This document shows, piece by piece, positions 10,418 to 57,000 of a stretch of DNA of 64,000 nt. Made by a program: the position numbers and the translations under genes. Every line of letters begins with the position of its first letter. Position 1 is the stretch's first letter. This stretch comes from Kiritimatiellia bacterium. Its GTDB lineage: Bacteria > Verrucomicrobiota > Kiritimatiellia > RFP12 > JBMNHG01. The DNA lies in assembly GCA_050950285.1 (NCBI GenBank), contig JBMNHG010000011.1, positions 248,001 to 312,000 of the forward strand, given 5' to 3'. The notes beneath the pieces are model-generated. The model was given only the letters and a program-made list of their open reading frames with translations, did no database searches and was not told the DNA's origin.

Positions 10418-13400
10418 CCGAATTCGCGGCATGCCGCGCGGCGCATGGCGCCCGCAGGGTCGACGGCGGCGCCGTACGCCCAGCTGCGCCCCTTGAACAA
10501 GGCCTGCTTGTGCCAGACATAGCGGTGCATGTTTGGCGCGACGGGCGGCCTGGTCCATTCCCAGTCCCATTCAAGACCTGCGGTTAGGTCGATGCCGTCG
10601 GCATCCTCCGCGATTTCCAGCACCTCGTCGCCGGACGACCAGAAGTTGTAGAGGACGGGGGCGGCGTCGGCGAAGCGCCCGCGCCAGGCGAGCCCGGCGC
10701 GGTCGTCGTCGGGGAAGGCCGCGGAGTTCGTGAAAAGCTGGCAATAGTTGGCCGACCAGGTGCGGGGCAGGTAGCCGCGCCAGTCGGGGTGCAGCAGGCG
10801 GTTGAGGGCGTTGGTGCGCTCGTCGACCATCGCGGCGTCGAAGGCCTCGGCGGGCACCGCGCCGTTGAGGGCGAAGAACTTGTCGGCCTGCATCCCGTGG
10901 TCGGCGATCGCGGCGGAGGTGAGCATGCAGCCGAGGCTGTGCGCCATCACGACGACCTGCGACTGGTTCGCCGCCTTGACCGCGTTGACGCGAGCGGCGT
11001 AGCCGGCGGCGGTCGCGAAGGCGTTGTTGACGTTGCCCGCGTAGGCGATCCTCGACCCCGTGTCGGAACTCCAGGTCACGGAGTGGAAGCGCGCGCGGCC
11101 GCCTTCCTGCCACAGCCGCTTGAAGAACTCCGCCCCCCACGCCCGCGCATCGTTCTCCGACACCCGGAAGCCGTGCGCCATGAAAACGTCAACGTTGGCG
11201 AGTTCCGAATCGGGCAGGCCGGACGGCTCATGCAGACGGTTCGGGAATGAAGGGCGCGCCCGGAAGTTGTGCCAGCGGTACATGTCCTCGACGCAGGAGA
11301 CGCGCAGGGGCAGGGACTTCTCCAGGATCTTCCTGCCGTCCCGCCAGATTTCAAGGACGAGGGGCTCGGTGGTCTCGGCGCGGCCCTCGACGAGGATGAC
11401 GCCCTTGGACGGGTCGGCGCGGACGGCATCGACGAAGGTGCCGGGGAGCGTCACGCCGCCGGCGGTGATCTTGCGGATGACGGCGGAGGCGAGGCCCGCG
11501 ACGTCCGAAACGAGGAAGGCGCCGGCGTCGTTGGTGGAGAGCGCGGTCGGGACATAGGCGAGCGCAGTGTTTTTCTGGCTCAGCCTGACCTCGATCTCGC
11601 CGCCGGGCGTCGCGTCGAGGTGGGCGAGGGCTTCGCCGATGTCCAGCCACACGGGGAAGAAGTCCGGCAGGTCGGCGCGGCCGTTGACGCGCCTGTCCCC
11701 GAAGTTGGCCTTGGACAGCCAGCCGGAGGACTGGCCGGGCAGGTCGCTTCCGCCTTCCGCGACGTCGCCCTTGTCCGCGTCGTCGTTGAGCCAGAGGCGG
11801 AAGGTGGCCCCGGACGCTTCGGCGGAGGAGATCGTCCGGTCGCGGTTGTAGTCGGGGACGAGGCCGGCGCGGACGACGGTGAGCCGGGCGGTCTTGCCGT
11901 CGGCGTGGAAGGTGTCGCTTTCTTCATGGAAGCCAAGGATGCCGCCGGGGTCGTCGGCGAGGACGGCCATGCCGGGGACGGAGGCGTCCGGGGAGAACTC
12001 GAGCGTGTAGTCGTAGTCGGGGCGGGGGGCGCCGTCGTAGTCGGGGTCGGTGGCGGCGTGCCCGAGCGCGACCTCGTAGGTCGCCCCGGCGGCAAGCCTG
12101 ACGGTGAGCGGGTCGGGCTGGCCGAACGCGCGGTTCACCAGCGTCCAGCCGGGGCGGGTGTCGCCGGATACCGGGGTGACCGTCAGGCGGTATTTTTCGG
12201 AGTGGCTGCCGCTCTCGTCGCCGAAGAGGATCGTGAAGGGGACGACCTCGCGGGGCTGGCTGTCCAAGTCGTCGAGCGGGTCGGAGCCCTGGCCGATCTC
12301 GTCGCCGTCCCGGACGCCGTCGCCGTCGGTGTCGGGGTTGAAGGGGTCGGTGCCGTCGGTCTCCTCCCCGGCGTTGGTGCGCCCGTCGCCGTCGGGGTCT
12401 TCGTCCGCGCCGTTGCCGGCGATGCCGTCGGTGTCGTTGTGGACGAACGGGCTCATGCCGCTGGCGAGCTCGAAGGCGTCGGAGAGGCCGTCGCCGTCGG
12501 TGTCCGAGGCGAGAGGGTCGAGCCCGGCGGCGGTCTCGTCGGCGTCGCCGATCCCGTCGCCGTCGCTGTCGGCGCGGAGCGGGTCGGTGCCGGTGCCGAA
12601 ATGGTAGGCGATGGAGAGGCCGGGGAAGACGGCGGGCTGGTGCCTGGAATAGGCGAGCGTGGTGTACGGGGCTCGGGCCTCCAGCCGTGCGTTGCGCCCG
12701 TCGCCGCGCCCGGCGGCGGCGGGGAAGACGACGTCGGCGCGGTCCGGGACGCCCTCCTGGAAAATGACCTGGAACGAGACGAGGTGGTTCGTGGTCGCGC
12801 CGCCGGAATGGAACCCCATGTTTTTGTATTCAACGACGCAGTACCGCGCGCCGTTGGTCGCGATGTCCGCGAGCGTGACCGATGAGCCGAGCCCGGCGGG
12901 ATAGGCCTTCAGGTTGTCGCGGAAGGCATCCAGTTGAAGGACGCTGTCCGAAAGGTATCCGTATGCGGCCGACCGGCCCAGTTCGACGAAGCCGTCGATC
13001 CCGACGCAGACGTTGGAGCAGACGGTGCCGTGGATCTCGACCGGGAAGGGCAGCGGCAGGACGGCCTGGCCGGAGTCGGGGTCGTCCATCAGCGCGAGGA
13101 CGTTCGTGCCGCCGGGGACGGCCAGCGGCGGCAGCCCCGCGCCGATCCACCCCGCTTCCCCGTGGTCGCCGAGGCCGTCGCCGTCGGTGTCCGCCAAGTG
13201 CGGGGAGGTGCCCAGCGCGGCCTCGCGCAGGTTGGGGATGTGGTCGCCGTCGGGGTCGGCGCCGGGGTCGGGGTCGGCGGCGTCGAGCGGGTCGAAGCCA
13301 TGCACGTCCTCCCACCCGTCCTTCATGCCGTCGCCGTCCGTGTCTTGTTTCCGGGGATTGGTCCCGCGCGCGATCTCCTCGCCGTCGTTCAGCCCGTCGC

Positions 13401-15930
13401 CGTCCGTGTCGGGGTCCAGCGGGTCGGAAGTCGGGGAGCCGCCGACCTCCGCGCCGTCCGTGCGCCCGTCGCCGTCGGTGTCGGGGTCGCGCGGGTCGGT
13501 GCCTTTATAACGCTCGTTTTTGTTGGACAGCCCGTCTCCGTCGGCGTCGGCGGGGCCGTCGGACGGGTCGGACGGGTCGAAGCCGTGCGCGGCCTCCCAC
13601 CCGTCCGGCATGCCGTCGTTGTCGGTGTCGGCCTTCAGCGGATTCGTTCCGGCGGGAATCTCGTCATGGTCGTCCAGCCCGTCCCGGTCCGAATCGCGGT
13701 GGTAGGGATCGGTCCCGAGCGCGGCCTCCGCGCCGTCCGAGAGGCCGTCGCCGTCCGTGTCCCAGTCGTTGGGATTCGAGGCGTGCCCGCGAGTCCCGAG
13801 ATATTCCTCCGCGAAGGAGAGGCCGTCGCCGTCGCAGTCCGAGAGGCCGTCGGACGGGTCGAGCGGGTCGAACTCCGGCATCCGCCGGAACTCCCAGCCG
13901 TCGCCCAGCCCGTCGCCGTCGGTGTCGGGGTCGAGCGGGTCGGTGCCGGCATCCGCCTCGTCGCCGTCCGCAAGGCCGTCGCCGTCGGTGTCGTAACCAA
14001 ACGGGTCGGTGCCGAGGGCAAGCTCCGCGCCGTCGTCCAGCCCGTCGGCGTCGGTATCGGGGTCGAGCGGGCCGGTGCCGATCCCGAAGCGGTATTCCAG
14101 CGCGAGGCCGTCCGCGACGGACGCCGTGTCGCGTGAAAACTGGAGCGCCTGCGGGACCGTCCGCGCCCCCAGCGTGGCCGAGCGCCCGTCGCCGCGGCCG
14201 TTGGCGTCCCGGTAGAACACGCGGAAGCGGTTCGAGACGCCCTCCTCGAAGACCAGCTGGAACGAGACGAGGTTGTTCGTGGTCGCACCGCCGGAATGGA
14301 AGCCCGCGTTTTTGTATTCGACGACGCAGTGGAGGTGGCCGTTTGTCACGACATCCGCCAGCGTGACGGCGGAACCCAGCGCGGGGTAGAGGCGCAGGTC
14401 GTCCCAGAACCCGGCGGCGAGCAAGCCGCAGCCGGACGGCATGTGCGCACGGCCCATGTCGCCATTGGCGTACCGCCCGGTGCCGATCGTCCCGGCCCCC
14501 GGGAAGAATCCGGCGATCCCGTTGGCGTTGGCCGACAGGCTGGTCAGGACCCGCCCCCCGAAGAAGAGCGGGAACGGGAGCGCCCCCTCCGCGCAGCCAT
14601 TGTCCATGTCGGACGCGAACCGCGCGGTCAGGTCCGTCCCGCCCGACGCGTCGAACCACCGGAAAGCCGTCGCCGCGACCGACGGCGGGCCGTATTCCTC
14701 CCCGTCCGTGAGGCCGTCGTCGTCGCTGTCGCTATCGCGCGGATCCGTCCCCAGCGCGGCCTCCAGGGCGTTCGGAAGCCCGTCGCCGTCGGGGTCGGCG
14801 CCGGGGCCGTCGCTCCCGTCGAGCGGATCCAGCCCCAGCGCGATCTCCGCGCCGTCGGGGCGGCCGTCGTCGTCCGTGTCGGCGTCGTCCGGGTCGGTGA
14901 GATGGACCCAGGTCTCCAGCGCGTCGGAAAGGCCGTCGCCGTCCGCGTCGACGAGCGAGGCGGCGCGGAAGAACGCGGAGGCGGACGCCTCCGCATCGAA
15001 CGGCGCGGCGACGTTGGTGTAGGCCACGCCGGAGACATAGAGGGAGTCCGCCGTGTTCGTGACGGCCGGCCCGTCGGGATCCGCCTGCTGCGCGGGCGGG
15101 AGCAGGTTCAAGGGGATCGAGTTGGACGCGGAGCCCCCGGACGGCTCGACCGGGATCTGCGCCAGCGGATGCCACGCGGTGCCGCCCGCCGCGTTCGTCG
15201 CGTCGAGGCGCGGCGCGCAGAGGATGTCCAGCCGGTTCCCCGGCAGCGGATGGTTCTCCGGCCACGCCAGGGCGAGCTGCACGGAGTTGGAGTCCACCCG
15301 GATGCCCGTGAACCGCAGCCCGTTCGTCCCGCCCGTCCCGCCTCCGCCCGGCGGGTTCCAGAAGCTCCGCCGCGCCTCCGCGTAGGCGCCGAGGTTGGTC
15401 GCGTCGACGAAATGCCACTCCATCTCGACGTGCGACGGCAGCAGCAGCAGGCGCGTGAAGTCCAGCGCGGACTGGGAGAGGCCGTTCGTCGGCGCGTCCG
15501 GCACGCCGTGCAGCTCCGCGATCCAGTCCGGGGCGTAGCCCGCGCCGGACAGCGGCGGCAGCGCGTCGAACGGGGAGCCGCCCGCGTCGTGGAAGCCGAT
15601 GACGCCGCTCGCGTCGTCCGTGCGCAGCGTGACGGGGAAGATCTCGACCCCGCCGAAATTCGTCGCCGCGAGCCCGTCCAGGAACCCCGCGCCGAATCCG
15701 TTCGTGGCGGCCGCCGTCCGGTCGACCGTCCCGCCCCACACCGTGAGGGCGCGGTTCGTCACGGGGAAGAACAGCCCGACGCCCGACGCCTGCCCCCGTT
15801 CGTACGCCAGCGCCAGATCCGTCTTGTTGTGCGGCTCGCCCGCAAATCCCGGAGAGGGGAAGCCCGCCTGCGCCTGCAGGGACGCCACCGGCACAAGAGC
15901 CGCCGCGACGATCGCGATGCGCTTGTTCAT
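10315..15930 (-). CDS. Large secreted protein: signal peptide, 21 DxDxDG Ca-binding (TSP3-like) repeats, two nidogen-like domains, PAD-like Ig domain and C-terminal alpha/beta hydrolase (DUF900-like); 3' end probably truncated
   Basis: Starts [22 protein letters not shown]. Repeated DTDGDGLxDGxE units; [18 protein letters not shown]...FHSVTW...MAHSLG nucleophile elbow. The ORF tail overlaps the convergent gene by 103 bp. Confidence 0.8.
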
Positions 15931-46839: not shown

Positions 46840-47976
46840 ATGCATTCGGCCCGCCCAACCTTGATGACGCTCGTCTTCGCCGGCATGGCGATCGTCCTTG
46901 TGCTGCAGCTTAGGGGAAATCGCCGACGCGACGCCGCGTACCGGCGTCTTCTGGAGGAGATGCCGCAGACGCACCAAACCGCGGCAACGAACGATCTGCC
47001 GCCGCAAGCCCGCGCGCCGGCCGACGCCACGTCGATTTACAGGCAGGTTTCGCCCTCGGTCGTCGCGGTGGCGAACCATGCCCTGGTGCGCCGGGGCTTT
47101 TTCGGGTTCCAGCTGGTCGAAGTGCCGCAAGGCGCCGGCTCGGGCTTTGTCTGGGACAAGGAAGGGCATATCGTCAGCAATTATCATGTGATCCATCAGG
47201 CCAACACCCTGGCCGTCACCTTCCCGGATGGCACGCGCCACGAAGCGCGGTTGGTCGGCATCGCGCCGGACTATGACCTCGCGGTGCTCAAGGTCGACGC
47301 ACCGCCGGATCTCCTCGTGCCGGTTGTCCTGGCCCGCTCGCGCGAACTGGAGGTCGGCCAGGACGTCTTCGCCATCGGAAACCCCTTCGGCCTCGACGCC
47401 ACCCTGTCGGCAGGCATCGTCAGCGCCCTCGGGCGAACGATCACCTCCATGACCGGCCGGCGCATCACCGATGTGATCCAGACCGACGCAGCGATCAATC
47501 CCGGCAACTCGGGCGGTCCCCTGCTGGACGCGCGCGGCCGGGTGATCGGCGTCAACACCGCCATCCTCAGCCCCAGCGGCGCCTATGCAGGCATCGGCTT
47601 CGCGGTGCCGTCCGACACCGTGGCCCGTGTCATCCCGCAACTGATTGAAAAAGGCCATGTCACGCGCGCCGGTCTGGGCTTGGAATTGGTTCCGGATCAC
47701 GTGACAGCCCGCGCGGGCATCGCAGGCGTGGCGATATACGCCGTTTACGAGCAGACGCCCGCCGCCCGCGCCGGTCTGGAAGGCATCGGCATCGACCACA
47801 TCGGAACCTTGGTCTTCGGCGATGTCATCACGGCTGTCGACGGCACGCCCGTGCGCACGGTCGAGGACCTGCGTTCGGCGCTGGATCCCCGCCAGCCCGG
47901 CGAATCGGTCGCCCTGTCGCTGCAACGTTCCGGCAAGACCCGCGAGGTGGCGGTCACGCTGATCGAGGAGCAATAA
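46840..47976 (+). CDS. HtrA/DegP-like trypsin protease with PDZ domain
   Basis: GSGFVW, SNYHVI, DLAVLK, IQTDAAINPGNSGGP and a C-terminal PDZ domain. Confidence 0.93.
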   Translation: MHSARPTLMTLVFAGMAIVLVLQLRGNRRRDAAYRRLLEEMPQTHQTAATNDLPPQARAPADATSIYRQVSPSVVAVANHALVRRGFFGFQLVEVPQGAGSGFVWDKEGHIVSNYHVIHQANTLAVTFPDGTRHEARLVGIAPDYDLAVLKVDAPPDLLVPVVLARSRELEVGQDVFAIGNPFGLDATLSAGIVSALGRTITSMTGRRITDVIQTDAAINPGNSGGPLLDARGRVIGVNTAILSPSGAYAGIGFAVPSDTVARVIPQLIEKGHVTRAGLGLELVPDHVTARAGIAGVAIYAVYEQTPAARAGLEGIGIDHIGTLVFGDVITAVDGTPVRTVEDLRSALDPRQPGESVALSLQRSGKTREVAVTLIEEQ

Positions 47977-48367
47977 AGCGCATCGTCAACCGAAGTGCGC
48001 GGCATCGTTCACCCGCGTTCGTGCCTCCCGTCTACGGCCTCCCCGTCCGCTTGCCTTGAAGGCCCTTCGTGCATGCATGCCGCGCGGCGTTTTGCGTTTT
48101 GGCAATGAATCCTGTCGCCCCGCCCCGCATCCCCGTCGCCGGCCGATGGCGTTTTGGGCTTGACGCCTTTCCACCTCCTTCGCATCATGGCGGCATGGAT
48201 GGGGGTCGGCTCGTCCCGCCGCCCCCCGGCATGCGGCAACGGTCTTTGCGGGAGTCTCCATGGCGGGTTGTTTCCGAAAGTTGCACACGCTCCGCTCCGC
48301 GCGGCTCGCCGCGGAAAGGCTCCACGACCCCTTCGACGACGACCAGCGAAACGGACGCCCCCGATTC

Positions 48368-48467
48368 CCGCATGGCAAGCCCGTCCATCCCGACATCACG
48401 CTCCATTGGGAGGCGGGGAACCCGCTCGCCCTGCTCGGGGGAACCACGGTTTACACGGACAAAATCG
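48368..48467 (+). repeat. 100-bp direct repeat, copy 1
   Basis: CCGCATGGCAAGCCCGTCC...ACGGACAAAATCG; two mismatches to the copy at 53618-53717. Confidence 0.95.
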
Positions 48468-49800
48468 AGATCGACGCCGGGGAGGTCGACTGGCCCCTGG
48501 ATTACGCCGTCATCCCGCGTCATTCGGCCATTTCCTTCGCCATCGCCGCCGAGGGCCAGGCCGCCGAGGGCGGCAAGGCGGTGGACATCGTCCACGGGCG
48601 CATCGTCGACGTGGACATCGATGTGGACGCCAACCACGACGGCAAAATCGACGACGCCGACGAGCCCCTGGAGGAGGACCCCGGCGGACTAGGCCTGCGT
48701 CTGCACGAACCAGCTGACGCCGATCAAGCTGACGCTGGCAGCCCGCCGGCCTGCCCGGCAGGCTGACCCTCTCGGCGACGATGGGCGGCCAGCGCATTAG
48801 AGTCTGGCGGAACGCCAACCGCACCGGCCAGATCGATCTGACCAAACAAGGCAATGTGGTTCCCGGCACGCTCTATGTCGAAGGTGTCGCCCCCAGCGCG
48901 ACCGCCCGCGACGTGGAACTCCGCCTCGAGTACGACGAGAACCCGCCGGGCCAGAATAACAGCCTCTTCAAGTGCGAAGACAGGGTAAGGCTGACGGTGA
49001 TTAAGGTGGAGACTATTAAATTTCGTATCGGCACTGCCTCTGAATGGAAAGATTTCGCGAAACCGCAGAAAATACTTTTGGGAAAGGTCTCACACCTTCG
49101 AGCGATGGACATCCAGCCTCCGGGTGTTGCTCTGCCCAGTGGATTTCCGGCATGGCAGGGAACCTATGGAGTCACGGCATCAGGCATCGAGGTAACCCAT
49201 ACATACAGCGGCGCGCCATCGGCGAGCGATGCAGACACAAAGACTGTCACCACAGAGGGCGGCCCCGCCGCACCGGAAGAGTTTTTGGTTTGCACGAAAG
49301 TACTTGGGATCCATTCAAATGTTGATCCTGATGCGGGCTTCACTTCTGGCCATGCGTGGGTGTCGGTTACTGACTATTCATATGGTTCTCCTGTGACTAC
49401 CACATATGGTTTATGGCCAGATGCACATCCCAATGTCCCCGACAACGGACCTGACTCGGATGTTCGTATAGGGTTGGAGCCTGCCACTGGTCTGCACAAC
49501 CGCTTTTTCCTGCTCTCCCCATCGCAGTACAATGCTTTTGTAACCTTTCGCCAATCTCATGCCGAATGGAGCTATATATACACATGTGCAAATTGGGCGG
49601 AAGATGCGTATCGCGCAGGCACTGCTGAAACAGTCGATTCGTCCGATAATGTGCTCTTCGGCACGCCTAGGAAAATATCTGCCAGCATTGTTGTACTAGA
49701 AACTGACAATCCGACGACCAGTGATATGCCGTTCGAAGGCGGCGAAGACGCATCCTCTTCCTCTAGCGGTTCATCTTGGGGCGGAAGTAGTTTCACATAA
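48368..49800 (+). pseudogene. Toxin-like cassette 1: head-less stalk fragment, conserved module (two +1 indels near 48692 and 48738) and permuted papain-like C-terminal domain; ORF 48781..49800 is intact
   Basis: DVDANHDGKIDDAD, a module homologous to 51134-51468, and a CT with GHAW...YGLWPD...TCANWA...GTP. Base composition becomes AT-richer after 49010. Confidence 0.65.
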
Positions 49801-49823
49801 ATCAAGGCCGGAAAGGATTAGCG

Positions 49824-50828
49824 ATGAAAATGATTCTGATGATGTCCGTTGTTTCGATGGCAACTCTTGCGTCGGGTGAAGAAACCCCAAGGACGCTTTT
49901 TGATGCCATTAAAAGCGACGATCTTTCGGAGGTTCGGCAAATGGCAGTTTCGAGGGAGCACGTCAACGCTCGAGACGCGCAGAATTTTACGCCGCTCATG
50001 GTGGCATCGAGACAGGCAAGCGTGGAAACCGTTAAGATTCTGGTGGAGGCCGGGGCCGATATTGATGCCAAGGTCGATGGTTTCACCGTTATTGACCAAG
50101 TTGAAAGCTACTTGAGGCGAACAGGCGACAACAAAAAGCGAACGATAGAAATGATGAAACGAGACGGGTTTAGCGAACAACTCATCAAGGCGGTAGAGGA
50201 GGACGCTCGCGGGCTAAACGAAAGCCCCGAGCGGATTCAAAAATGGCAGACTATTCTCGATTATTTGAAAGAGGTTAAGGACTGTGCTAGAGCTGATAAT
50301 AATCCGGCAACGAATGACATGCCTTTTGATGGTGGTGAAACAGTCTTGAGCGTTGATACTGCTGCCAAAAGTATTCTCGACGCTGTAAGAAACGGCAATT
50401 TACATGAGGTAAAACAAATGGTAAGGGACAAGGCGTTGCTGGATAAAAGAGATGCTCACGGCCGTTCGCCCTTGATGCTTGCCGCCGAACAAGGGAATGT
50501 TGAAATCACAAAAGTTCTTATCGAGGCAGGTGCCGATGTAAACGCGAGAGATCGGTTTGGCTTCACCGCCGTCGATTTGATCGAAAGTATTCTGCGACGC
50601 GTTCATTTTAATTCTCCTGAATTTTTGCGGGAGCGAGCAGAAAGGATGCGACGGGAGGGGTTCAGCGAAGATGTGGTTGAGAAGGAGCTGAAGTTGCTCA
50701 AAGGTTCTGCCGTGCCGGGACCACAACGAACAGCAAATGATATTCAGAACCTAGAGGAAGTTCTGCGGTGTTTGAAAAAAGCTGTCGAAACGAGAACAGA
50801 AGATGCGGGTGGGCAAAATGGGAAATAG
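49824..50828 (+). CDS. Ankyrin-repeat protein with two paralogous halves and a signal-like N-terminus; candidate immunity protein
   Basis: TPLMVAS..VETVKILVEAGADIDA and SPLMLAA..VEITKVLIEAGADVNA. AT-rich; starts 23 nt after the cassette 1 stop. Confidence 0.8.
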   Translation: MKMILMMSVVSMATLASGEETPRTLFDAIKSDDLSEVRQMAVSREHVNARDAQNFTPLMVASRQASVETVKILVEAGADIDAKVDGFTVIDQVESYLRRTGDNKKRTIEMMKRDGFSEQLIKAVEEDARGLNESPERIQKWQTILDYLKEVKDCARADNNPATNDMPFDGGETVLSVDTAAKSILDAVRNGNLHEVKQMVRDKALLDKRDAHGRSPLMLAAEQGNVEITKVLIEAGADVNARDRFGFTAVDLIESILRRVHFNSPEFLRERAERMRREGFSEDVVEKELKLLKGSAVPGPQRTANDIQNLEEVLRCLKKAVETRTEDAGGQNGK

Positions 50829-50830
50829 CC

Positions 50831-52699
50831 ATGTGTCCCGCAAACCCCATTGAATTTCACCGTAAAGTTGGCCGATGGAATGGCTCCGTCTGGGACGGCG
50901 ACGGCATACATGGCGCGGCGGACGATCCGGACCGCGACGGGCTTGACAATCTCGGGGAGTTCATCAACGGCACGGATCCGTTCAACGCGGACACGGACGG
51001 CGACGGCAGGCCTGATGGGTGGGAGGTCGGGCAGGGGTTCGATCCGGTCGAAATTGACACCGACGGCGACGGCATGTCCGACTGGTGGGAACGGCGGCAC
51101 GGCATCACCGCCGCCGACGAGCTGAAGGAGATGGACCCCGGCGGCTATGTGTGCGTCTGCACGAACCACCTGACGCCAATCAAGCTGACGCTGAAGCCTG
51201 CCGGTTTGCCCGGCAAACTGACCCTCTCGGCGACGATGGGTGGGGACCGCATCCGCATCTGGAAAGACGCCGGGCGCGCGGTCGAGGTGGTATTGACCAA
51301 TGGCTGCGCCCAGGTGGCGCCCGGCACGCTCTACGTCGAGGGGGTCACCAACAGCGCCGCCCTCCGCGACGTGGAGCTGCGCCTCGAGTACGACGAGAAC
51401 CCGCAAGGCCAAAGCAATCCCCTCTTCAAGTGCGAGGACAGGATAAGGCTGACGGTGATTAAGGTGGACTTGGACATATGGAATGGGGGGAGCGATCTGG
51501 ACAACGGACAGAGCGCCGGAAGCCAGGGTGCGCAGGTTCCCGAAGGCAGCGAGGTTTTGATCGGGGCTTATGTCTTGGTCAACTGGGACGATGACGACGC
51601 CGACGGAACGATGAACGCCGATGGCACATGGTCGGCGCTGCCCGTGCCGGACTTGACAGAAAACTCGGTTGCCAATGAAGACAATCTCGCCAAACTGAAA
51701 CCTACCGTTGAACCGTTGTTAGACATCGGCAGCATAGAGTTGGAGGTGTCCGGCGCAGACGCGGACAAGGTCAAGCTGTGGACGCAGAGCACCAAGGGAA
51801 CAGATGTTGCGCTAGCCTCCGGCAAGAGGACGTGGAATCTCGCCAGTCCAACGGAGAAGGCTGACTTCCAAACCTTTATGAGCGGTGGCTATTGGATCGA
51901 GGGCGTGGATGCCGGAACGGTTGAACGCGGGGTTACTTATACCCTGCGCTACAAGAACAGCGGCGGGACGGAAATCTGCAAGGACGAGAACAAGGCGACC
52001 GTTGTCATGATCAATCTGGCCAACGCGGTCTATCGTGACAACATGATTTGGTCACAGGGTTCGCGAGGTCATGGAGCCTTGGTTTGGCGTTACGCCGGAA
52101 CCTGCACAAGGCCTGACCTTACCAATGACGTCAATTTCATTCTTATCGAAATGGATGGACCAACAGATTACCGAACCCTTGCCACAATTACGCAACAGGC
52201 GGGCTATCCGGCTTACGGATGTTTCAGGAATCCATCGATAACACACGTGCAACGACTTAGAATTATCCAAGCGGCACGCGCATTGGCAGCGCGCGCCCCA
52301 ATCACATATACCGCGACAGATGCGGTACAACCCTACGACTGGGACGGCGCGCTTAACTCCATCACAGCACTGCGTTGCGATAGTTTGATTGAGGTGTGCT
52401 ATGAGATCAACGGCGTGAACGTGTGGGGCATGGAGAGAGATGCGGATAGCCACACTGTTCACTATCCCATCAACGATCAAGCTGACAATTGGAGCTACAA
52501 CGCCACATGGGGTACATGGACAGTGGGCGCAAACAATCGGCCGGACAACCTTGAGGAGCACAATGACTTTGGCGCTATTGGTTGGGACGACACCTTCATG
52601 CCAGCAACTCAATGTGGAAATGTTGCCCCAGTCGAAGCAGACACACGTTTTCAGGCTCAGAATCTTTGCCAACCCGTTGGCAGCACCGGAGGTAATTGA
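50831..52699 (+). CDS. Toxin-like cassette 2: DxDxDG repeats, conserved module, PAD-like Ig domain and permuted papain-like (YiiX-like) C-terminal domain; no signal peptide
   Basis: DPDRDGLDNLGEF.NGTDP, LVNWDDDDADG, and a CT with GHGALV...IEMDG...RCDSLIEVCYE...MPATQ. Confidence 0.7.
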   Translation: MCPANPIEFHRKVGRWNGSVWDGDGIHGAADDPDRDGLDNLGEFINGTDPFNADTDGDGRPDGWEVGQGFDPVEIDTDGDGMSDWWERRHGITAADELKEMDPGGYVCVCTNHLTPIKLTLKPAGLPGKLTLSATMGGDRIRIWKDAGRAVEVVLTNGCAQVAPGTLYVEGVTNSAALRDVELRLEYDENPQGQSNPLFKCEDRIRLTVIKVDLDIWNGGSDLDNGQSAGSQGAQVPEGSEVLIGAYVLVNWDDDDADGTMNADGTWSALPVPDLTENSVANEDNLAKLKPTVEPLLDIGSIELEVSGADADKVKLWTQSTKGTDVALASGKRTWNLASPTEKADFQTFMSGGYWIEGVDAGTVERGVTYTLRYKNSGGTEICKDENKATVVMINLANAVYRDNMIWSQGSRGHGALVWRYAGTCTRPDLTNDVNFILIEMDGPTDYRTLATITQQAGYPAYGCFRNPSITHVQRLRIIQAARALAARAPITYTATDAVQPYDWDGALNSITALRCDSLIEVCYEINGVNVWGMERDADSHTVHYPINDQADNWSYNATWGTWTVGANNRPDNLEEHNDFGAIGWDDTFMPATQCGNVAPVEADTRFQAQNLCQPVGSTGGN

Positions 52700-52700
52700 C

Positions 52701-53495
52701 ATGAAAGATACCGAATTGTTGGCAGGCATATTCCTTGCGGCCCAGCTACTCGTTTATGGCGCAGACCACCACTGGAATCATATCCAACGACTTGTAAAAG
52801 AACATGACTCTCCACAGGGCAATCCACAGTTGGAAACGTACCTAAAAAGTCTCACGCCCGACCAAATGATTCAAGCTGCTCGTGAATATTCCCAGTACGC
52901 AGCCAACAAGTTCCCTGCGGACAATTGGGCCGAGGCCGTTATGGATGTCGGACTTGCCTTGACCTTTTATGGAACTGATCAGGGTGGCCTGACGAATGAC
53001 AGGCTGTGCGTGTTGCTTCAATGTATAGCCGATAAAAACGAAAATGATTTTTTCAGGGAAGCGCTCGTTCGACTTGTTCGGCAGCGGTATTGGGAGCAAA
53101 TGACCGATGACCAACGTCGGCGGAGCAGGCTGTCTTTTCTTGAGGTATTATCGGACAAGAACGCGCCTGGGCGATTGAGGGTCTTGAGTTGTCGGGAACT
53201 CACGCAGGCGCTGGCCGAGAGGCATCGTCGCATTATAATCTCGGACAGGAATATCCGTCCGCTCAGAAGCGACAGGTCGAAATGGCAAAACGTCAATGGT
53301 CTTGTCCGCAATGGCGAGATCCGCCTTGAACCCGAGACACGAAGTGCTCTGAAAACACTTCGGGCCGAGATCGCCGACATCACGCCGGCACTCACCAAGC
53401 TATCACAGAGCGCAGACGAGCCGCCGGAAGTGAAGGACTGTGCGCGTTCGGCTCTGAAGACCCTTGCCGACCTGCCGGTTGCACCTGAACAATGA
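52701..53495 (+). CDS. Helical exported hypothetical protein; candidate immunity protein
   Basis: Starts 1 nt after the cassette 2 stop. Signal-like MKDTELLAGIFLAAQLLVYGA, AT-richer, with a HEAT-like end EVKDCARSALKTL. Confidence 0.65.
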   Translation: MKDTELLAGIFLAAQLLVYGADHHWNHIQRLVKEHDSPQGNPQLETYLKSLTPDQMIQAAREYSQYAANKFPADNWAEAVMDVGLALTFYGTDQGGLTNDRLCVLLQCIADKNENDFFREALVRLVRQRYWEQMTDDQRRRSRLSFLEVLSDKNAPGRLRVLSCRELTQALAERHRRIIISDRNIRPLRSDRSKWQNVNGLVRNGEIRLEPETRSALKTLRAEIADITPALTKLSQSADEPPEVKDCARSALKTLADLPVAPEQ

Positions 53496-53617
53496 CTGTT
53501 GCCAGCAACTTATGGACAAGGCGTATGGACAGTGTGCGAGCCCTCAGCACGCCCTGTCACCAACCGATTACCACACGCAAACACCGCGCTTGCCGACGCG
53601 TCCCGATCATACTCCTT

Positions 53618-53717
53618 CCGCATGGCAAGCCCGTCCATCCCGACATCACGCTCCATTGGGAGGCGGGGAACTCGCTCGCCCTGCTCGGGGGCACCACGGT
53701 TTACACGGACAAAATCG
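53618..53717 (+). repeat. 100-bp direct repeat, copy 2
   Basis: 98/100 identical to 48368-48467, offset 5250 bp. Confidence 0.95.
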
Positions 53718-53879
53718 GGATCACTTGACACTTGGGCCCGACGGCAAGCCCGGAACGGCTACCATCGATGACGACGGCGACGGCGTTATTGATGAAGAGA
53801 ACGATCTTATTAACCCGGCCACAAATAGCGCTGCGCACGGAGATTCAGGCATGGGGAGCTGGAATTTGGAGTTGGGAAA

Positions 53880-53928
53880 GGGGCACGGACATTCCTGTCC
53901 GTGTCACGGGTTGGAAAACCCGTGCCCC
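53880..53928. repeat. REP-like inverted doublet of hairpins
   Basis: GGGG-CACGGACA-TTCC-TGTCCGTG T CACGGGTT-GGAA-AACCCGTG-CCCC. Confidence 0.7.
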
Positions 53929-54096
53929 TGTTTTGCAATATGAATTATGGCCGAGTTAGTAAGAATGCACGATTGTCGGGAAAGGAAGCCGAGAAGTTGT
54001 GGCGTAAGAATAGGTAGAACGATTGTGGCGGCAGTTGTGCCGCCGCACCTCATTTTTCCATGTCCTTCCCCGCGATTCTTCCGTATACTTTCCGAC

Positions 54097-57000
54097 ATGA
54101 AAATCAAGAACATCCTTTTGGCCGTCGGCTGTCTGCTGGCGGCGACGCTCCCCGCCACCGAGACGCAGAACACGTCGATTCGCGTCCTGCCCGCACCCGG
54201 TGCCGTGGAAATCGACGGACGGTTCGACGACTGGGACCTCCGCGGCGGCGTCTTCGCCTGCGGCGAGCTCGAAAACTTGCGGGACCAGTACGCCGTGTGG
54301 ATGCACCTCATGCACGACGCCGAGTATTTCTATGTGCTCGCACGATGGCGTGATTCCACCCCGCTCAACAATACCGAGACCTTCGGAGGCCACGGCTTCA
54401 ATGCCGACTGCCTCCAGTTCCGCACCATCCTCTTCACCGACACCCCGGACGAAACCGCCCTCTGGTGGATGTTCTGGCGCGATGCCGCCGGCACCGACGT
54501 CGCCGACCGCTCCAGCCCCGGCCCCGAAAACGGCCATCCGGACAACGTGCTCGAACCGCTCCCCCGAGCCGCCGGGCACGGCGTGAAGCAGGCCTTCCTC
54601 GTGGATGGGGACGGCAAGGGCTACTCCCAGGAAATCGCCATCCCCTGGAAGCTCATGAGCGCCTCCGGCCGCGTGCCCGCCATCGGCGACACCTTCCGGT
54701 TCACCGTCGAGCCGAACTTCACCGCCGGCTCTTTCGGACGCATCACCATCAAGGACATCTTCGACGAGCGCATCGCCACGCCCGACCGCATCTTCACCTT
54801 CACCGCCTGGCGCCACTGGGGCTGGGCGACGATGGTCGGCCCCGATGCCGAAATCGCCCCGCAACCCGTCAAGACCGCCGACGGCCGCTCGTTCCCCGTC
54901 ACCATGGAGGACGGACTCCCCGTCGTAAACTGGGCCGGCCTGATCCGCCGCTTCGAATGGCCCGGCTTCAAGGAAATCGCCTTCGACATGCCCTTCGACG
55001 GCCGCGTCTCGCTCAACATCCTCGACGGGGAAGGCCACGTCGCCCGCCACCTCCTCAACTGGGAACGTCGCGGGAAAGGCCCGCAAACGACGAAGTGGGA
55101 CGGACTCGACGACGCCGTCTTCCGCACCCCCGGCCATCCCGTCTCCGCCGGCAGCTACGCCTGGAAGGCCATCGCCCATCCCGGCGCGCGCCTCACCTTC
55201 CGCGGGTACGCCTGCTACGGCGGAGCCGCTCCATGGTCCGGCAAGCCCACCGACACCTGGCTCGGCGACCACGGCGTCCCCTCCGACGCCGCCACCGACG
55301 GCACCCGCATGATCCTCGCCTGCAACGGCGCGGAAGGCGGCCGCCACCTCCTCGCCTGCGACTTCGAAGGCCGCGTCGAATGGTCCACCCAAAACACCAC
55401 CGGCATGGGCGACCCCGAATACATCGCCGTCGACGACTCCGCCGTCTACGTGCTCCACGTCTCCTGGAACCCCTCCCAGCCCTTCGCCATCGCGAAGGTC
55501 GACTCCTCCAACGGCGGCTACACCTCCTGGGAAGGCCGCGGCTCCCACCTCCTCTCGCTGGCCGACTGCTGGAGCGACGGCGTCCAGGGCGGACCCCGCG
55601 CCAACGGCATCGCCGCCGGCGGCGGCAAGGTTTTCCTCAGCTACGCCGCCGGAAACGCCCGGGGTGTCGCGATGCTCGACGCCGCCACCGGCAACGCCCT
55701 CGCCTCGTGGCCCCTTCCCGGCGCCCACGCCCTCCACTTCGCGGGCGCCGCCGGCCACGTGCTCGTCGCCACCGCCGACGGCATCTCCACCCTCGATCCC
55801 GCCACCGGCACCATCGCCCCGCTGGTGGAGGGCGTCGACAACATCCGCGGCGTCACCGCCTCCGCCGACGGCTCCACCCTCTACGCCTCCCTCGGCGACC
55901 CCGACATGCAGGTCGCCGCCTACGACGCCGCCACCGGCCGCGAGCTCCGCCGCTACGGCGTCCCCGGCGGCCACCCCCGCGTGGGCAAGTGGAACCCGGA
56001 CGGCATGATCGACCCCGCCGGCCTCGCCGTGGACAAGACGGGCCAGCTCTGGGTCATGGAGCATTACGCCATCCCGAAACGCGTGAGCGTCTGGAAGCTC
56101 GGCGACGGCTCGCTCGTCCGCGACTTCTTCGGCCCCGCCCACTACGGCGCGTCCGGCGCCGCGATCAACCCCCGCGACAAGAACCTCATGGTGGGGGAAG
56201 GCTGCGAATGGCGCCTCGATCCCGAAACCGGCAAGTCCGTCTGCCTCGGTGCCTTCGACACCTCCCTCCACGGCTTCGCCGCTTTCCGGGAAGGCCCCGG
56301 CAACCGCCAGTTCCTCTACCTCGTGAAGATGGGCTACGGAACCGGCGCCATCGAAATCCATGAACGCCTCGGCGATGCCGACTACCGCCTCCTCGCCGTG
56401 ATTCGAAACGATCGCGAAGCCGACGACGGCGGACAGCGCGTGCGCTTCACCGACATCTGGATCGACCGGAATGGCGACGGCCGGGAGCAGCCCGGCGAGG
56501 TCGAAAGCCGCCGCGGCCCCATCAACTTCTCCGGCTCGAACAGCTGGTCCCTCAACCTCGGCCCCGACCTGTCTCTCTACGGCTACTCGCGCGACGAAGG
56601 CATCCTCTGGCGCTTCGCCCCCGGCGGCTTCGCCGAAAACGGCGCGCCGCTCTACTCCTTCGCAACCGCCACCGAAATGCCCCGGGCCATGTCCCACGGC
56701 TACCAGGACAACTACTCCAGCGCCCTCCCGGACTGCGAGAACAAGGTTATCCTCGTGAACCTCCGCGTGGAAGACCACCCCGCCGGCTTTGTCTGGCACG
56801 GCTTCGACCTCGCCAGCGGCGAGCTGCTGTGGACCTACCCGAACCCCTTCTTCCAAGTCCACGGCTCCCACAACGCCCCCGCCTCCGAACCCGGGCTCTT
56901 CCGCGGCGCGTACGGCCCCGTCGGCGCCCTCGCCACCGACGCCACCGGCCCCTTCTGGACCATCAACGGAAACCTCGGCGAATGGTACGCACTCTCCTCG

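Follow-up and report, generated by a model that had tools for sequence, protein, structure and literature searches.

Do the two short genes with unrelated ends that lie side by side in a low-GC island of a Kiritimatiellia genome belong to a polymorphic toxin system with a carrier of its own? The island is part of a 64,000-nt stretch of contig JBMNHG010000011.1 (assembly GCA_050950285.1; G000:C11:248001-312000 in our notation), hereafter the window, to which all positions without a contig name refer. The source genome comprises 4.05 Mb in 12 contigs, with a GC content of 0.661 and a completeness of 99.35%. The island takes up 48.1-54.0 kb of the window. Across ~48.8-54.2 kb, the GC content drops from ~0.68 to ~0.50, and the + strand carries, in this order, a first cassette, an ankyrin gene, a second cassette, a gene for a 264-residue protein, a truncated third unit, and a 155-nt repeat. 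In all probability, the region stores orphan (silent) cassettes of a polymorphic toxin-immunity system that depends on Sec and whose carrier is undescribed. This reading is based on DNA repeats, architecture, predicted folds, invariant His and Cys residues, the linkage of each C-terminal domain (CT) with a candidate immunity gene, and the diversity of the tails.

Cassette 1 (open reading frames (ORFs) at 48260-48766 and 48781-49800) and cassette 2 (50831-52699, or 50768-52699 from an alternative GTG start) have ~330 nt in common (48680-49010 and 51136-51468; 73-85% identity). The shared DNA encodes a 111-residue module, which runs from PGG(Y/L)xCVCTN.LTPIKLTL to KCEDRxRLTVIKVD and is recognized in the window copies by a module profile with E values from 1e-65 to 1e-47. 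Directly after ...KVD, the sequences of the two cassettes are unrelated and the GC content falls: both module copies are at 0.65, CT1 and CT2 at 0.52 and 0.55, and the genes downstream of them at 0.49 and 0.53. In both cassettes, the downstream gene begins 2-25 nt past the CT stop codon. The original prediction had described two such units, each composed of a GC-rich module, an AT-richer unique CT, and a linked AT-richer gene with a signal-like N-terminus, and the ORFs, GC values, and DNA repeats bear this out. Signal-like N-termini were judged by eye and with a crude hydrophobic-stretch rule; by this rule both downstream products are signal-like and neither cassette has its own signal peptide, as had also been stated.

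The module is a multicopy element in this genome, with 15 copies at E <= 1e-8 in the profile search and 18 by tblastn, including one diverged copy and two remnants. The copies are distributed over five loci: C2:109.7-122 kb, C2:290-296 kb, C8:161-171 kb, C4:145.6-148.3 kb, and the window. Over the 12 cassettes measured, the mean GC content declines from 0.66 (module) through 0.54 (CT) to 0.52 (downstream gene), and the step down is present in all 12. A single constant region is thus followed by many unrelated C-terminal domains, 14 CTs of ~10-11 types. Related pairs are CT2 and the CT at C2:295470 (51% identity), two copies of a GYSHGG-type CT (98.8%), and, weakly, two CTs with a Cys motif (E 3e-4); several further CTs have only an N-terminal immunoglobulin-like (Ig) domain, Ig2, in common.

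The original prediction took the cassettes to be head-less, which does not hold genome-wide, as full-length carriers with a Sec-type signal and ~700 residues of TPR are encoded on C4 (intact) and C2 (frameshifted). The intact head (C4:142674-147053; 1459 residues from Met) has a signal-like N-terminus (MADCFRRLHTLRSARPAADPAILVVLAAAPLLHA/AEAP), followed by the TPR region, a beta region, a pre-module Ig domain, the module, and a 346-residue CT. Pfam detected TPR_16 in it (E 8e-15), with sub-threshold matches of the YbgF and BamD type. Searched with Pfam, the head and the cassettes contain none of the Rhs, FHA, LXG, MuF, or VgrG domains, in agreement with the earlier statement that the carrier belongs to none of these classes. 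The C2:106770 head is frameshifted close to the module end, and the copy at C2:288000 has internal deletions. Truncated cassettes are found behind the full-length heads and at the C8 locus, the locus labeled C2b, and the window. The pre-module region and the module together form a GC-rich arm of ~700 nt that is 80-97% identical between copies. Within the module, the central ~40 residues occur in two variants, GDRIRIWKDAGRAVEVVLTNGCAQ...VTNSAALRD and GQRIRVWRNANRTGQIDLTKQGN...IAPSATARD, which are shuffled among the copies; judged from their sequences, such hybrid (mosaic) copies are what would be expected from gene conversion.

To describe the CTs, we used AlphaFold models built with alignments for cassette 2 (622 residues, mean pLDDT 85.8) and for P0072 (512 residues, 78.9). 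P0072 is an uninterrupted version of cassette 1, encoded on a 17.5-kb contig of another sample, and is 100% identical across the 339-residue CT1 ORF. CT1 begins with a family-specific beta subdomain (49012..49293, +; strands at residues 251-344 of the P0072 model), which is kept in 17 CT1 homologs, and continues into the catalytic domain (49294..49800, +). Structural alignment of the latter (P0072 residues 345-488) with VIA-align gave TseH (6v98; Z 8.4, rmsd (root-mean-square deviation) 4.0, 125 aligned), DeSI-1 (2wp7; Z 7.1), and YiiX (2if6; Z 6.3). The putative catalytic residues are a His at 49351-49353 (GHAW) and a Cys at 49585-49587 (TCANW); in the CT1 alignment, H101, H114, and C192 are invariant in 18/18 sequences. 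The CT2 catalytic domain (52007..52699, +; model residues 393-622) aligned with YiiX (2if6; Z 10.8, rmsd 4.7, 152 aligned), the Cys peptidase 3kw0 (Z 9.5), TseH (6v98; Z 6.9), and PLAAT4 (Z 6.3). Its putative catalytic His and Cys lie at 52070-52072 (RGH) and 52376-52378 (LRCD), and H201 and C303 are invariant in all 25 aligned sequences. These Z values are moderate, and the tool cautions that scores of this size can reflect common arrangements; the alignments, however, extend over the greater part of both domains and score higher than the unrelated rows. The models thus place both CTs in the permuted NlpC/P60-superfamily fold, with the His preceding the Cys, and both are predicted to be permuted papain-like Cys hydrolases, TseH/PPPDE/YiiX-like in CT1 and YiiX-like in CT2. 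Neither Pfam (E <= 0.05) nor NCBIfam (E <= 0.01) returned a family for CT1 or CT2. TseH is lethal to E. coli only when it is directed to the periplasm, and it is neutralized by the protein that the adjacent next gene encodes (PMC4453574). The CT1 family ends, in 18/18 proteins, in a conserved Ser/Gly-rich tail, ...P..GGEDA.STSSGSSWGGSSF(P), at 49700-49797 of the window, which by its sequence looks like a C-terminal tag.

The gene downstream of CT1 (49824..50828, +), its candidate immunity gene, encodes a signal-like N-terminus and two tandem ankyrin units of ~150 residues (Pfam Ank_2, 68.1 bits, E 1e-18; Ank, 66.5 bits). The units are joined by a scar, NNPATNDMPFDGGE, that copies the 3' end of a lost CT1-type gene. 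A metagenome scan yielded 16 CT1 loci, six of them close (44-73% identity), and in 6/6 of the close loci a single-unit ankyrin gene of ~190 residues with a signal-like start lies downstream. The products of these genes match both halves of the window protein (E 1e-27 to 5e-53). Since each half matches single-unit ankyrin genes at close CT1 loci, the window gene is, by its sequence, a fusion of two diverged immunity units. Unit A is nearest to the L060 type and unit B to the L058 type. The ten distant CT1 loci have one ankyrin gene (L071), two small lipoprotein-like families (three and five loci), and one singleton.

The candidate immunity gene for CT2 (52701..53495, +) starts with an ATG 2 nt past the CT2 stop and encodes 264 residues with a signal-like N-terminus. 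The protein matched no Pfam or NCBIfam family; its own family has ~270 residues and looks all-helical. A linkage scan with one genome per species identified 20 CT2 loci, 19 near full length and one cut by a contig end, and a homolog of the 264-residue gene was directly downstream of the CT2 relative in 18/18 testable loci. Eight of these homologs were detected by phmmer (E 5e-13 to 8e-94), four more by a hidden Markov model (HMM) from the phmmer matches (8e-11, 4e-7, 9e-6, 3e-5), and six by a six-frame search, one being frameshift-split and one tandem-duplicated; the linkage HMMs were built iteratively from their own matches. The loci come from metagenome-assembled genomes labeled Kiritimatiellia, Verrucomicrobiota (including Akkermansia), Lentisphaerae, Pirellulales, Phycisphaerae, Planctomycetaceae, Nitrospirota, and Chitinophagales. 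CT2 proteins elsewhere have unrelated N-termini, and many have their own signal peptides. By position and co-occurrence, the downstream genes are tied to the type of CT, which supports the cognate relationship that had been proposed, with the paralog at C2:295470 as the exception. Among the 17 downstream proteins of the genome, 15 have signal-like N-termini, only one pair is alike, and several are of the HEAT or Ank type; NCBIfam named no CT or downstream protein beyond the Ank and HEAT likeness. A complex prediction for CT2 (residues 1-409 of its alignment) with the downstream protein (22-264) scored 0.00 in two runs, a value that says nothing either way.

The original prediction had called the module a PAD-like Ig domain, and the models confirm this at the level of the fold. 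With Foldseek, human and mouse PAD enzymes ranked first for both models over ~280-350 columns (E 6e-11 for cassette 2 and 2e-9 for P0072), and the N-terminal domains of PAD1-4 and PADI6 were matched with E values from 6e-11 to 1e-6. VIA-align to PADI6 gave Z 11.1 for cassette 2 residues 69-425 and Z 11.5 for P0072 residues 1-295. In the predicted structures, the pre-module domain, the module, and Ig2 thus resemble the N-terminal and middle domains of PAD. The corresponding Pfam models (PF08526 and PF08527; PAD_N and PAD_M) had no match at E <= 10 in the window module region, P0072, or the head Ig region; PAD_M matched only in the database protein P0267, at 21.1 bits versus a cut-off of 24.8.

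How far the module extends beyond this genome was examined by a profile search of 1.84 billion representatives, which returned at least 1305 proteins at E <= 1e-3, each standing for a cluster at 50% identity; 549 of them reached 1e-10, and 100 reached 1e-30. The search profile covered the module with flanking constant region and had 720 positions, because long rows entered; the module was re-located with a 113-position HMM, which matched in 217/281 examined proteins. From these, 176 post-module tails of at least 120 residues formed 56 BLAST clusters, of which the largest is the CT2 family (59 members, inflated by the first query). Homologs of the module hence do not always carry the same C-terminus, in this genome or in the database. 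Pfam had no domain for 48 of 64 representatives, four very long proteins being excluded. Where a domain was recognized behind the module, it was a PAD catalytic domain, transglutaminase, RHS repeats, Peptidase_M15_3, Peptidase_C39_2, DUF6973 (twice), DUF7689, or DUF6345. The module family precedes a genuine PAD catalytic domain in P0214 (E 6e-60), transglutaminase cores, and, in P0223, an RHS-repeat region (P0214, P0264, P0220, and P0223). Within the class, the module is present in 17/301 genomes, and only the source genome has more than four matches. The module is therefore a widespread general Ig scaffold, and the multi-cassette arrays, among the genomes searched, are particular to the source organism and to close relatives known as metagenome proteins.

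The 5' part of cassette 1 corresponds to that of a head gene. The stretch 48116..48315 (+) is a copy of a head-gene 5' end, comprising upstream DNA and the first 18 codons (MAGCFRKLHTLRSARLAA; start codon at 48260), and is 95-99% identical in DNA to the head 5' ends at C2:106625, C4:142551, and C2:287987. The hydrophobic core of the signal peptide is absent, and the crude rule found no signal-like stretch. The pre-module Ig-like domain with its acidic DxDxDxNxDG linker follows (48309..48679, +); it is 86-97% identical in DNA to the same region of eight other copies and forms a beta-sandwich at residues 45-122 of the P0072 model. Since the head 5' region is joined to the pre-module Ig at a CCGCGG(G)A microhomology (48309-48315), the signal-peptide core, the TPR region, and the beta domain are deleted. 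The same junction occurs in the intact 548-residue frame at C8:160477 and in P0072, two short forms that are intact ORFs though they have no signal peptide. Short head-deleted genes retain the head promoter region and the first 18 codons (window 48260-48330; C8:160529; C2:287987), and a second, different deletion on C2 shares the 5' start point, which suggests a deletion hotspot.

The statement that both cassettes start mid-domain therefore needs amendment: cassette 1 keeps the head upstream region and 18 codons fused to the pre-module Ig, and cassette 2 begins with a fragment of TSP3 repeats. Module copy 1 (48680..49010, +; profile E 2e-47), delimited by direct repeats and three-frame translation, is broken. 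Relative to four other copies, it has 1-nt insertions near 48690 and 48741, which create a TAG and two frame changes. Contigs without a base at 48691 and 48740 exist in other runs (three DNA, one RNA), for which paralogous modules may be the source. Programmed frameshifting was considered and rejected, as the insertions lie outside slippery or homopolymer runs and are absent from the other copies.

In cassette 2, an N-terminal part without a signal peptide (50831..51136, +) contains TSP3 (DxDxDG-type) repeats and an acidic linker. The Pfam match to TSP3_bac (E 1.4e-4) is below the cut-off, the DNA is 71-82% identical to the giant LamG/TSP3 genes of the genome, and model residues 1-69 have pLDDT values below 50. 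One such giant TSP3-rich frame, 1946 residues open, lies in the window itself at 12271-14952 on the - strand (G000:C11:260271-262952), with near-identical paralogs on C3, and is the likely source of the fragment. Module copy 2 (51137..51469, +; profile E 1.2e-65; pLDDT 81-96) is intact. It is followed by Ig2, the first domain of CT2 (51470..52006, +), a second, diverged module-like Ig domain with a VNWDDDDADG motif. Its module-like character is supported by a second match of the module HMM in P0001, ending at residue 394, and by many Ig-fold matches of model residues 210-392 (Z 6-7). Ig2 is common to CT2 and five other CTs of the genome.

The array ends in a third, truncated unit (53618..53806, +), which by translation consists of a 105-nt pre-module fragment, a frameshift, and a TSP3-like DDDGDG remnant, and is 97-99% identical to nine other copies. 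It is marked by a 105-nt direct repeat (48368-48472 and 53618-53722; 97% identity). A 155-nt repeat resembling a miniature inverted-repeat transposable element (MITE), with a 25-nt hairpin and no assigned strand, closes the array (53807..53961). Genome blastn with this repeat gave 97 high-scoring segment pairs on both strands, 55 of at least 140 nt, and some copies form tandem runs (C6:189004-189762, C2:967490-968164). In two C2 cassettes, the element sits exactly at the module/CT junction (C2:118349, C2:122162). Rfam contains no family for the repeat, and no credible RNA family was found within 47900-54300.

The same DNA was also followed in other samples by mapping the contigs of three DNA runs and one RNA run to the window. 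CT and immunity sequences recur unchanged in contigs of several bioreactor and digester runs, and metatranscriptome contigs of one run are 94-98% identical over CT2 and both CT/immunity junctions, for which DNA carry-over is possible. These contigs, which are short and break at repeats, included no recombinant with a head. A joint of 51453 to 53811 was rejected as a variant of the locus; it corresponds to the module-MITE arrangement of the C2 paralogs.

The remaining CTs of the genome offer further enzyme-like motifs. Two copies of the GYSHGG-type CT lie at C2:118485-119504 and C2:122298-123068, the second truncated and both separated from the module by the MITE. In the ESM Atlas, its structural neighbors are alpha/beta hydrolases of the thioesterase, VirJ, cutinase, and lipase type (TM scores 0.44-0.50), so that a lipase-type tip is possible from the predicted structure, as a lead only. 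Other tips carry HExxH and GxSxG motifs by eye. The CT of the C4 head had weak Ig-type neighbors only in the ESM Atlas (0.79 or less), and PDB sequence searches with the lipase-like CT, the HEMLH CT, and the C4 head's CT gave a best E value of 0.28.

In the mechanism that we infer, the working form would be a full-length carrier from another locus of the genome; the intact example is the head at C4:142674-147053. Such a carrier would comprise a Sec-type signal peptide, ~700 residues of periplasmic-type TPR, beta-sandwich domains and Ig domains of the PAD-N/M type with acidic DxDxD(N)xDG linkers between them, the 111-residue module, and a variable CT enzyme. It would be exported by Sec and would then have to pass the outer membrane, and its CT, acting as a toxin, would attack a layer of the neighbor's periplasm. 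The exported immunity proteins imply toxins that act in the periplasm. For CT1 and CT2, the substrate would be peptidoglycan peptides, or possibly a lipid or acyl group, in the target periplasm, and the exported downstream protein would bind and block its cognate CT in the periplasm of the producer. The GC-rich ~700-nt arm could provide the homology by which a low-GC CT-immunity cassette is swapped into a head, as in Rhs, CdiA, and MafB orphans. Without signal peptides, and with two frameshifts in cassette 1, the window pair would represent a partly decayed reserve, whose immunity genes could still protect. Tail diversity and downstream linkage support the orphan CT/immunity layout that had been likened to Rhs, CdiA, and MafB loci, and marks of recombination and decay that are typical for arrays of this kind are visible as truncated units, a fused double-immunity gene with a CT scar, a mosaic module, and MITEs at junctions.

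Several observations weigh against this explanation. No CT of the genome belongs to a curated toxin family, the sole Pfam match being DUF7689 in one CT at 23.0 bits versus a cut-off of 22.6. Frameshifts affect window cassette 1, the C2 head, C4:148194, and the C2:288000-289988 copy, so that either a large share of the family may have lost activity in this genome or indel errors may be present in the assembled repeats. The intact short forms without a signal peptide (C8:160477 and P0072) misfit a simple Sec-export model. The genome, at its completeness of 99.35%, has no T6SS (type VI secretion system) sheath gene, and flanking ORFs inspected by eye showed no secretion genes and no porin-like neighbor beside the heads. 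Among the 18 CT2 linkage matches, three weak ones (E 3e-5 to 4e-7) were obtained with an HMM derived from the stronger matches, and the gene downstream of the C2:295470 paralog has no detectable likeness to the CT2-linked family. The module family is, moreover, not specific to toxins: it precedes a PAD domain and transglutaminases and occurs in up to 11 copies in giant proteins. Export of the CTs as T6SS cargo was considered and set aside, as the sheath gene is missing.

As an alternative to interbacterial toxins, the module-CT proteins could be secreted hydrolases that serve the cell itself or its nutrition, by remodeling the cell wall or degrading substrates, each with its own inhibitor in the periplasm. 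The Ig module would then be a generic enzyme stalk, the arrays a gene-family expansion, and the downstream gene a safety inhibitor, like staphostatin for staphopain. Such a role would suit the position of the module before bona fide enzymes (PAD, E 6e-60; a transglutaminase core, Peptidase_M15_3, and C39_2), the finding that in other phyla the CT2 pair stands alone, outside any array and with a signal peptide of its own, and the failure to find delivery machinery, either in the head flanks or, for the T6SS sheath gene, genome-wide. We nevertheless consider it unlikely, since housekeeping enzymes are not expected to occur as cassettes that have lost the signal and are cut back to the final constant domains. 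It is also at odds with the low-GC CT-plus-partner behind a constant region of genome GC in 12/12 cassettes, with fused immunity genes that carry toxin scars, with ~10-11 unrelated CT types on one constant region, and with a patchy distribution that crosses phyla at 37-95% identity, and the nearest solved fold of CT1 is that of an antibacterial effector.

A less probable explanation is that the locus is inert and consists of fragments left by recombination in a family that was formerly active, the downstream genes being hitch-hiking remnants. The missing export signals of both cassettes, the two 1-nt insertions and in-frame TAG of cassette 1, the truncated third unit and MITE at the array end, the chimeric TSP3 N-terminus of cassette 2, and further frameshifted copies in the genome would all fit debris. 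However, CT1, CT2, and both downstream genes are long open frames with all family-invariant residues, CT1 is 100% identical to the intact 512-residue gene of another sample, and the CT/immunity sequences are unchanged across several bioreactor/digester runs. The metatranscriptome contigs add a weak hint of activity, subject to the possible DNA carry-over, and retained immunity genes would be useful by themselves. The variable tips might also be those of an adhesin or antigenic-variation system, with exchangeable binding domains on Ig stalks that help the cell to evade phages or predators and with downstream genes encoding chaperones or anchors. Ig-like stalks, TSP3, and Ca-binding-type linkers are typical of adhesins, up to 11 modules occur in giant proteins, and a silent-cassette layout fits antigenic variation, too. 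The tips examined are, on the contrary, enzyme folds with invariant catalytic His and Cys; HExxH and GxSxG motifs are seen by eye in others, one of which has alpha/beta-hydrolase neighbors as a lead only; and the downstream proteins are diverse and CT-specific, unlike a common chaperone. A surface-variation role thus seems very improbable, and a Sec-dependent polymorphic toxin-immunity system with orphan cassettes remains our preferred explanation.

A wider generalization can be offered only tentatively, and we would sooner doubt it than accept it. Possibly, the PAD-like Ig module marks a large and hitherto unrecognized class of exchangeable effectors, Sec-dependent and T6SS-independent, of which three-domain PADs, and perhaps Ig-fronted transglutaminases, are frozen members. 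Such a class may span PVC (Planctomycetes-Verrucomicrobia-Chlamydiae) bacteria, Planctomycetota, Bacteroidota, Nitrospirota, and others, with dozens of mostly unnamed periplasm-acting tips, each with an exported antidote. Animal PADs are reportedly a cyanobacterial acquisition; if the generalization were true, these citrullinating enzymes of animals would trace back to a family of weapons used between bacteria.

Much is known of polymorphic toxins in Proteobacteria, Firmicutes, and Bacteroidota, and little of those in PVC bacteria, which are dominant in some digesters and sediments. In our literature searches, polymorphic toxins and Kiritimatiellae were not mentioned jointly, and the Verrucomicrobia literature on orphans or immunity was not relevant. 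On polymorphic toxins with signal peptides and immunity proteins in Planctomycetes, Zhang et al. 2012 was the one relevant paper, and no description of the carrier was found; DUF6973, DUF7689, and DUF6345 were in effect unmentioned in the literature searched. In that work, Table 1 lists Sec-dependent polymorphic toxins ('T2SS/signal peptide only', where T2SS is the type II secretion system), including MAFB-N and TPR/Sel1 repeats, and HEAT and ankyrin (Imm-Ank) immunity proteins are named together with NlpC/P60 and other papain-like toxin tips (PMC3482391). The terms 'arginine deiminase' and 'PPPDE' have 0 occurrences in the same text (PMC3482391). The original prediction that this is not a described toxin carrier accordingly stands insofar as we found no description of it, and must be qualified insofar as Sec-dependent polymorphic toxins with TPR are already contained in Table 1 of Zhang et al. 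2012 (PMC3482391).

What appears new is a constant region of TPR and PAD-like Ig domains with a sharply defined swap point at the Ig-domain end. New, too, are at least two candidate toxin-immunity families without a Pfam or NCBIfam model, whose pairing is kept across phyla, and about ten further unnamed tips in one genome. The locus thereby supplies candidates for antibacterial enzymes and for their inhibitors that can be tested directly, and it may place the PAD N-terminal domains in an evolutionary context. It also poses a puzzle, namely how a Sec-exported protein would reach the periplasm of a neighbor without a T6SS or T5SS (type V secretion system).

Among known systems, the two catalytic domains and their partners have separate counterparts. 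CT1 has its best non-Ig fold match in TseH of the Vibrio cholerae T6SS pair TseH-TsiH (PDB 6v98), which likewise acts in the periplasm and has its antidote encoded by the next gene (PMC4453574). TseH differs from CT1 in sequence (14% identity, no shared Pfam model) and in context, being a small stand-alone T6SS cargo, whereas CT1 is the tip of Sec-type carriers and orphan cassettes and has an ankyrin-repeat immunity candidate. The last 230 residues of CT2 share their fold, with the His before the Cys, with YiiX (DUF1105, 2if6), 3kw0, and PPPDE/DeSI-1. CT2 is not a member of these sequence families and always occurs with a preceding Ig2 and a cognate exported partner gene. To our knowledge, YiiX, the 3kw0 peptidase, and PPPDE/DeSI-1 are not known as toxins. 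The ankyrin gene directly downstream of the CT1 toxin domain, at 6/6 close loci, resembles the Imm-Ank immunity proteins, a class named by Zhang et al. 2012 (PMC3482391).

The constant region resembles PAD in that the pre-module domain, the module, and Ig2 superpose on the PAD_N and PAD_M Ig domains, with acidic Ca-site-like loops, and in that one database member, P0214, has a true PAD catalytic domain behind the module. The catalytic partner, however, is exchangeable here and fixed in PAD, and the Pfam PAD models miss the module. CdiA and other two-partner secretion systems are more distant, since Pfam found no TPS (two-partner secretion) domain or FHA repeats in the head or cassettes and no CdiB-like porin neighbor was seen by eye. 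The E. coli Rhs elements have a GC-rich core and AT-rich tips. The Rhs/YD-repeat orphans share with the present locus a sharp boundary between GC-rich and AT-richer DNA (here just after ...LTV(I/V)KVD), orphan arrays, and recombination by a conserved arm. They differ in that RHS_repeat, PAAR, VgrG, DUF6531, and the Rhs core motif were not found by Pfam in the head or cassettes, the T6SS sheath gene is missing, and one Ig domain serves as the constant arm in place of a shell.

A close parallel is MafB/MafI of Neisseria, along with other Sec-dependent polymorphic toxins. Both systems combine a signal peptide and constant region with variable CT toxins and an immunity gene directly downstream, both have 5'-truncated orphan arrays that share the end of the constant region, and in neither do dedicated secretion genes adjoin the toxin gene. 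The differences are that the constant region of the present system combines TPR with PAD-like Ig domains, with no DUF1020/MAFB-N (Pfam found TPR families only on the 1459-residue head), that the immunity proteins are exported, that the host belongs to the PVC group, and that some short forms keep the head promoter and start codon without the signal core. Although it has neither the DUF1020 nor the RHS repeats that would make it a member of either family, the system would work like the MafB and Rhs orphan-cassette systems.

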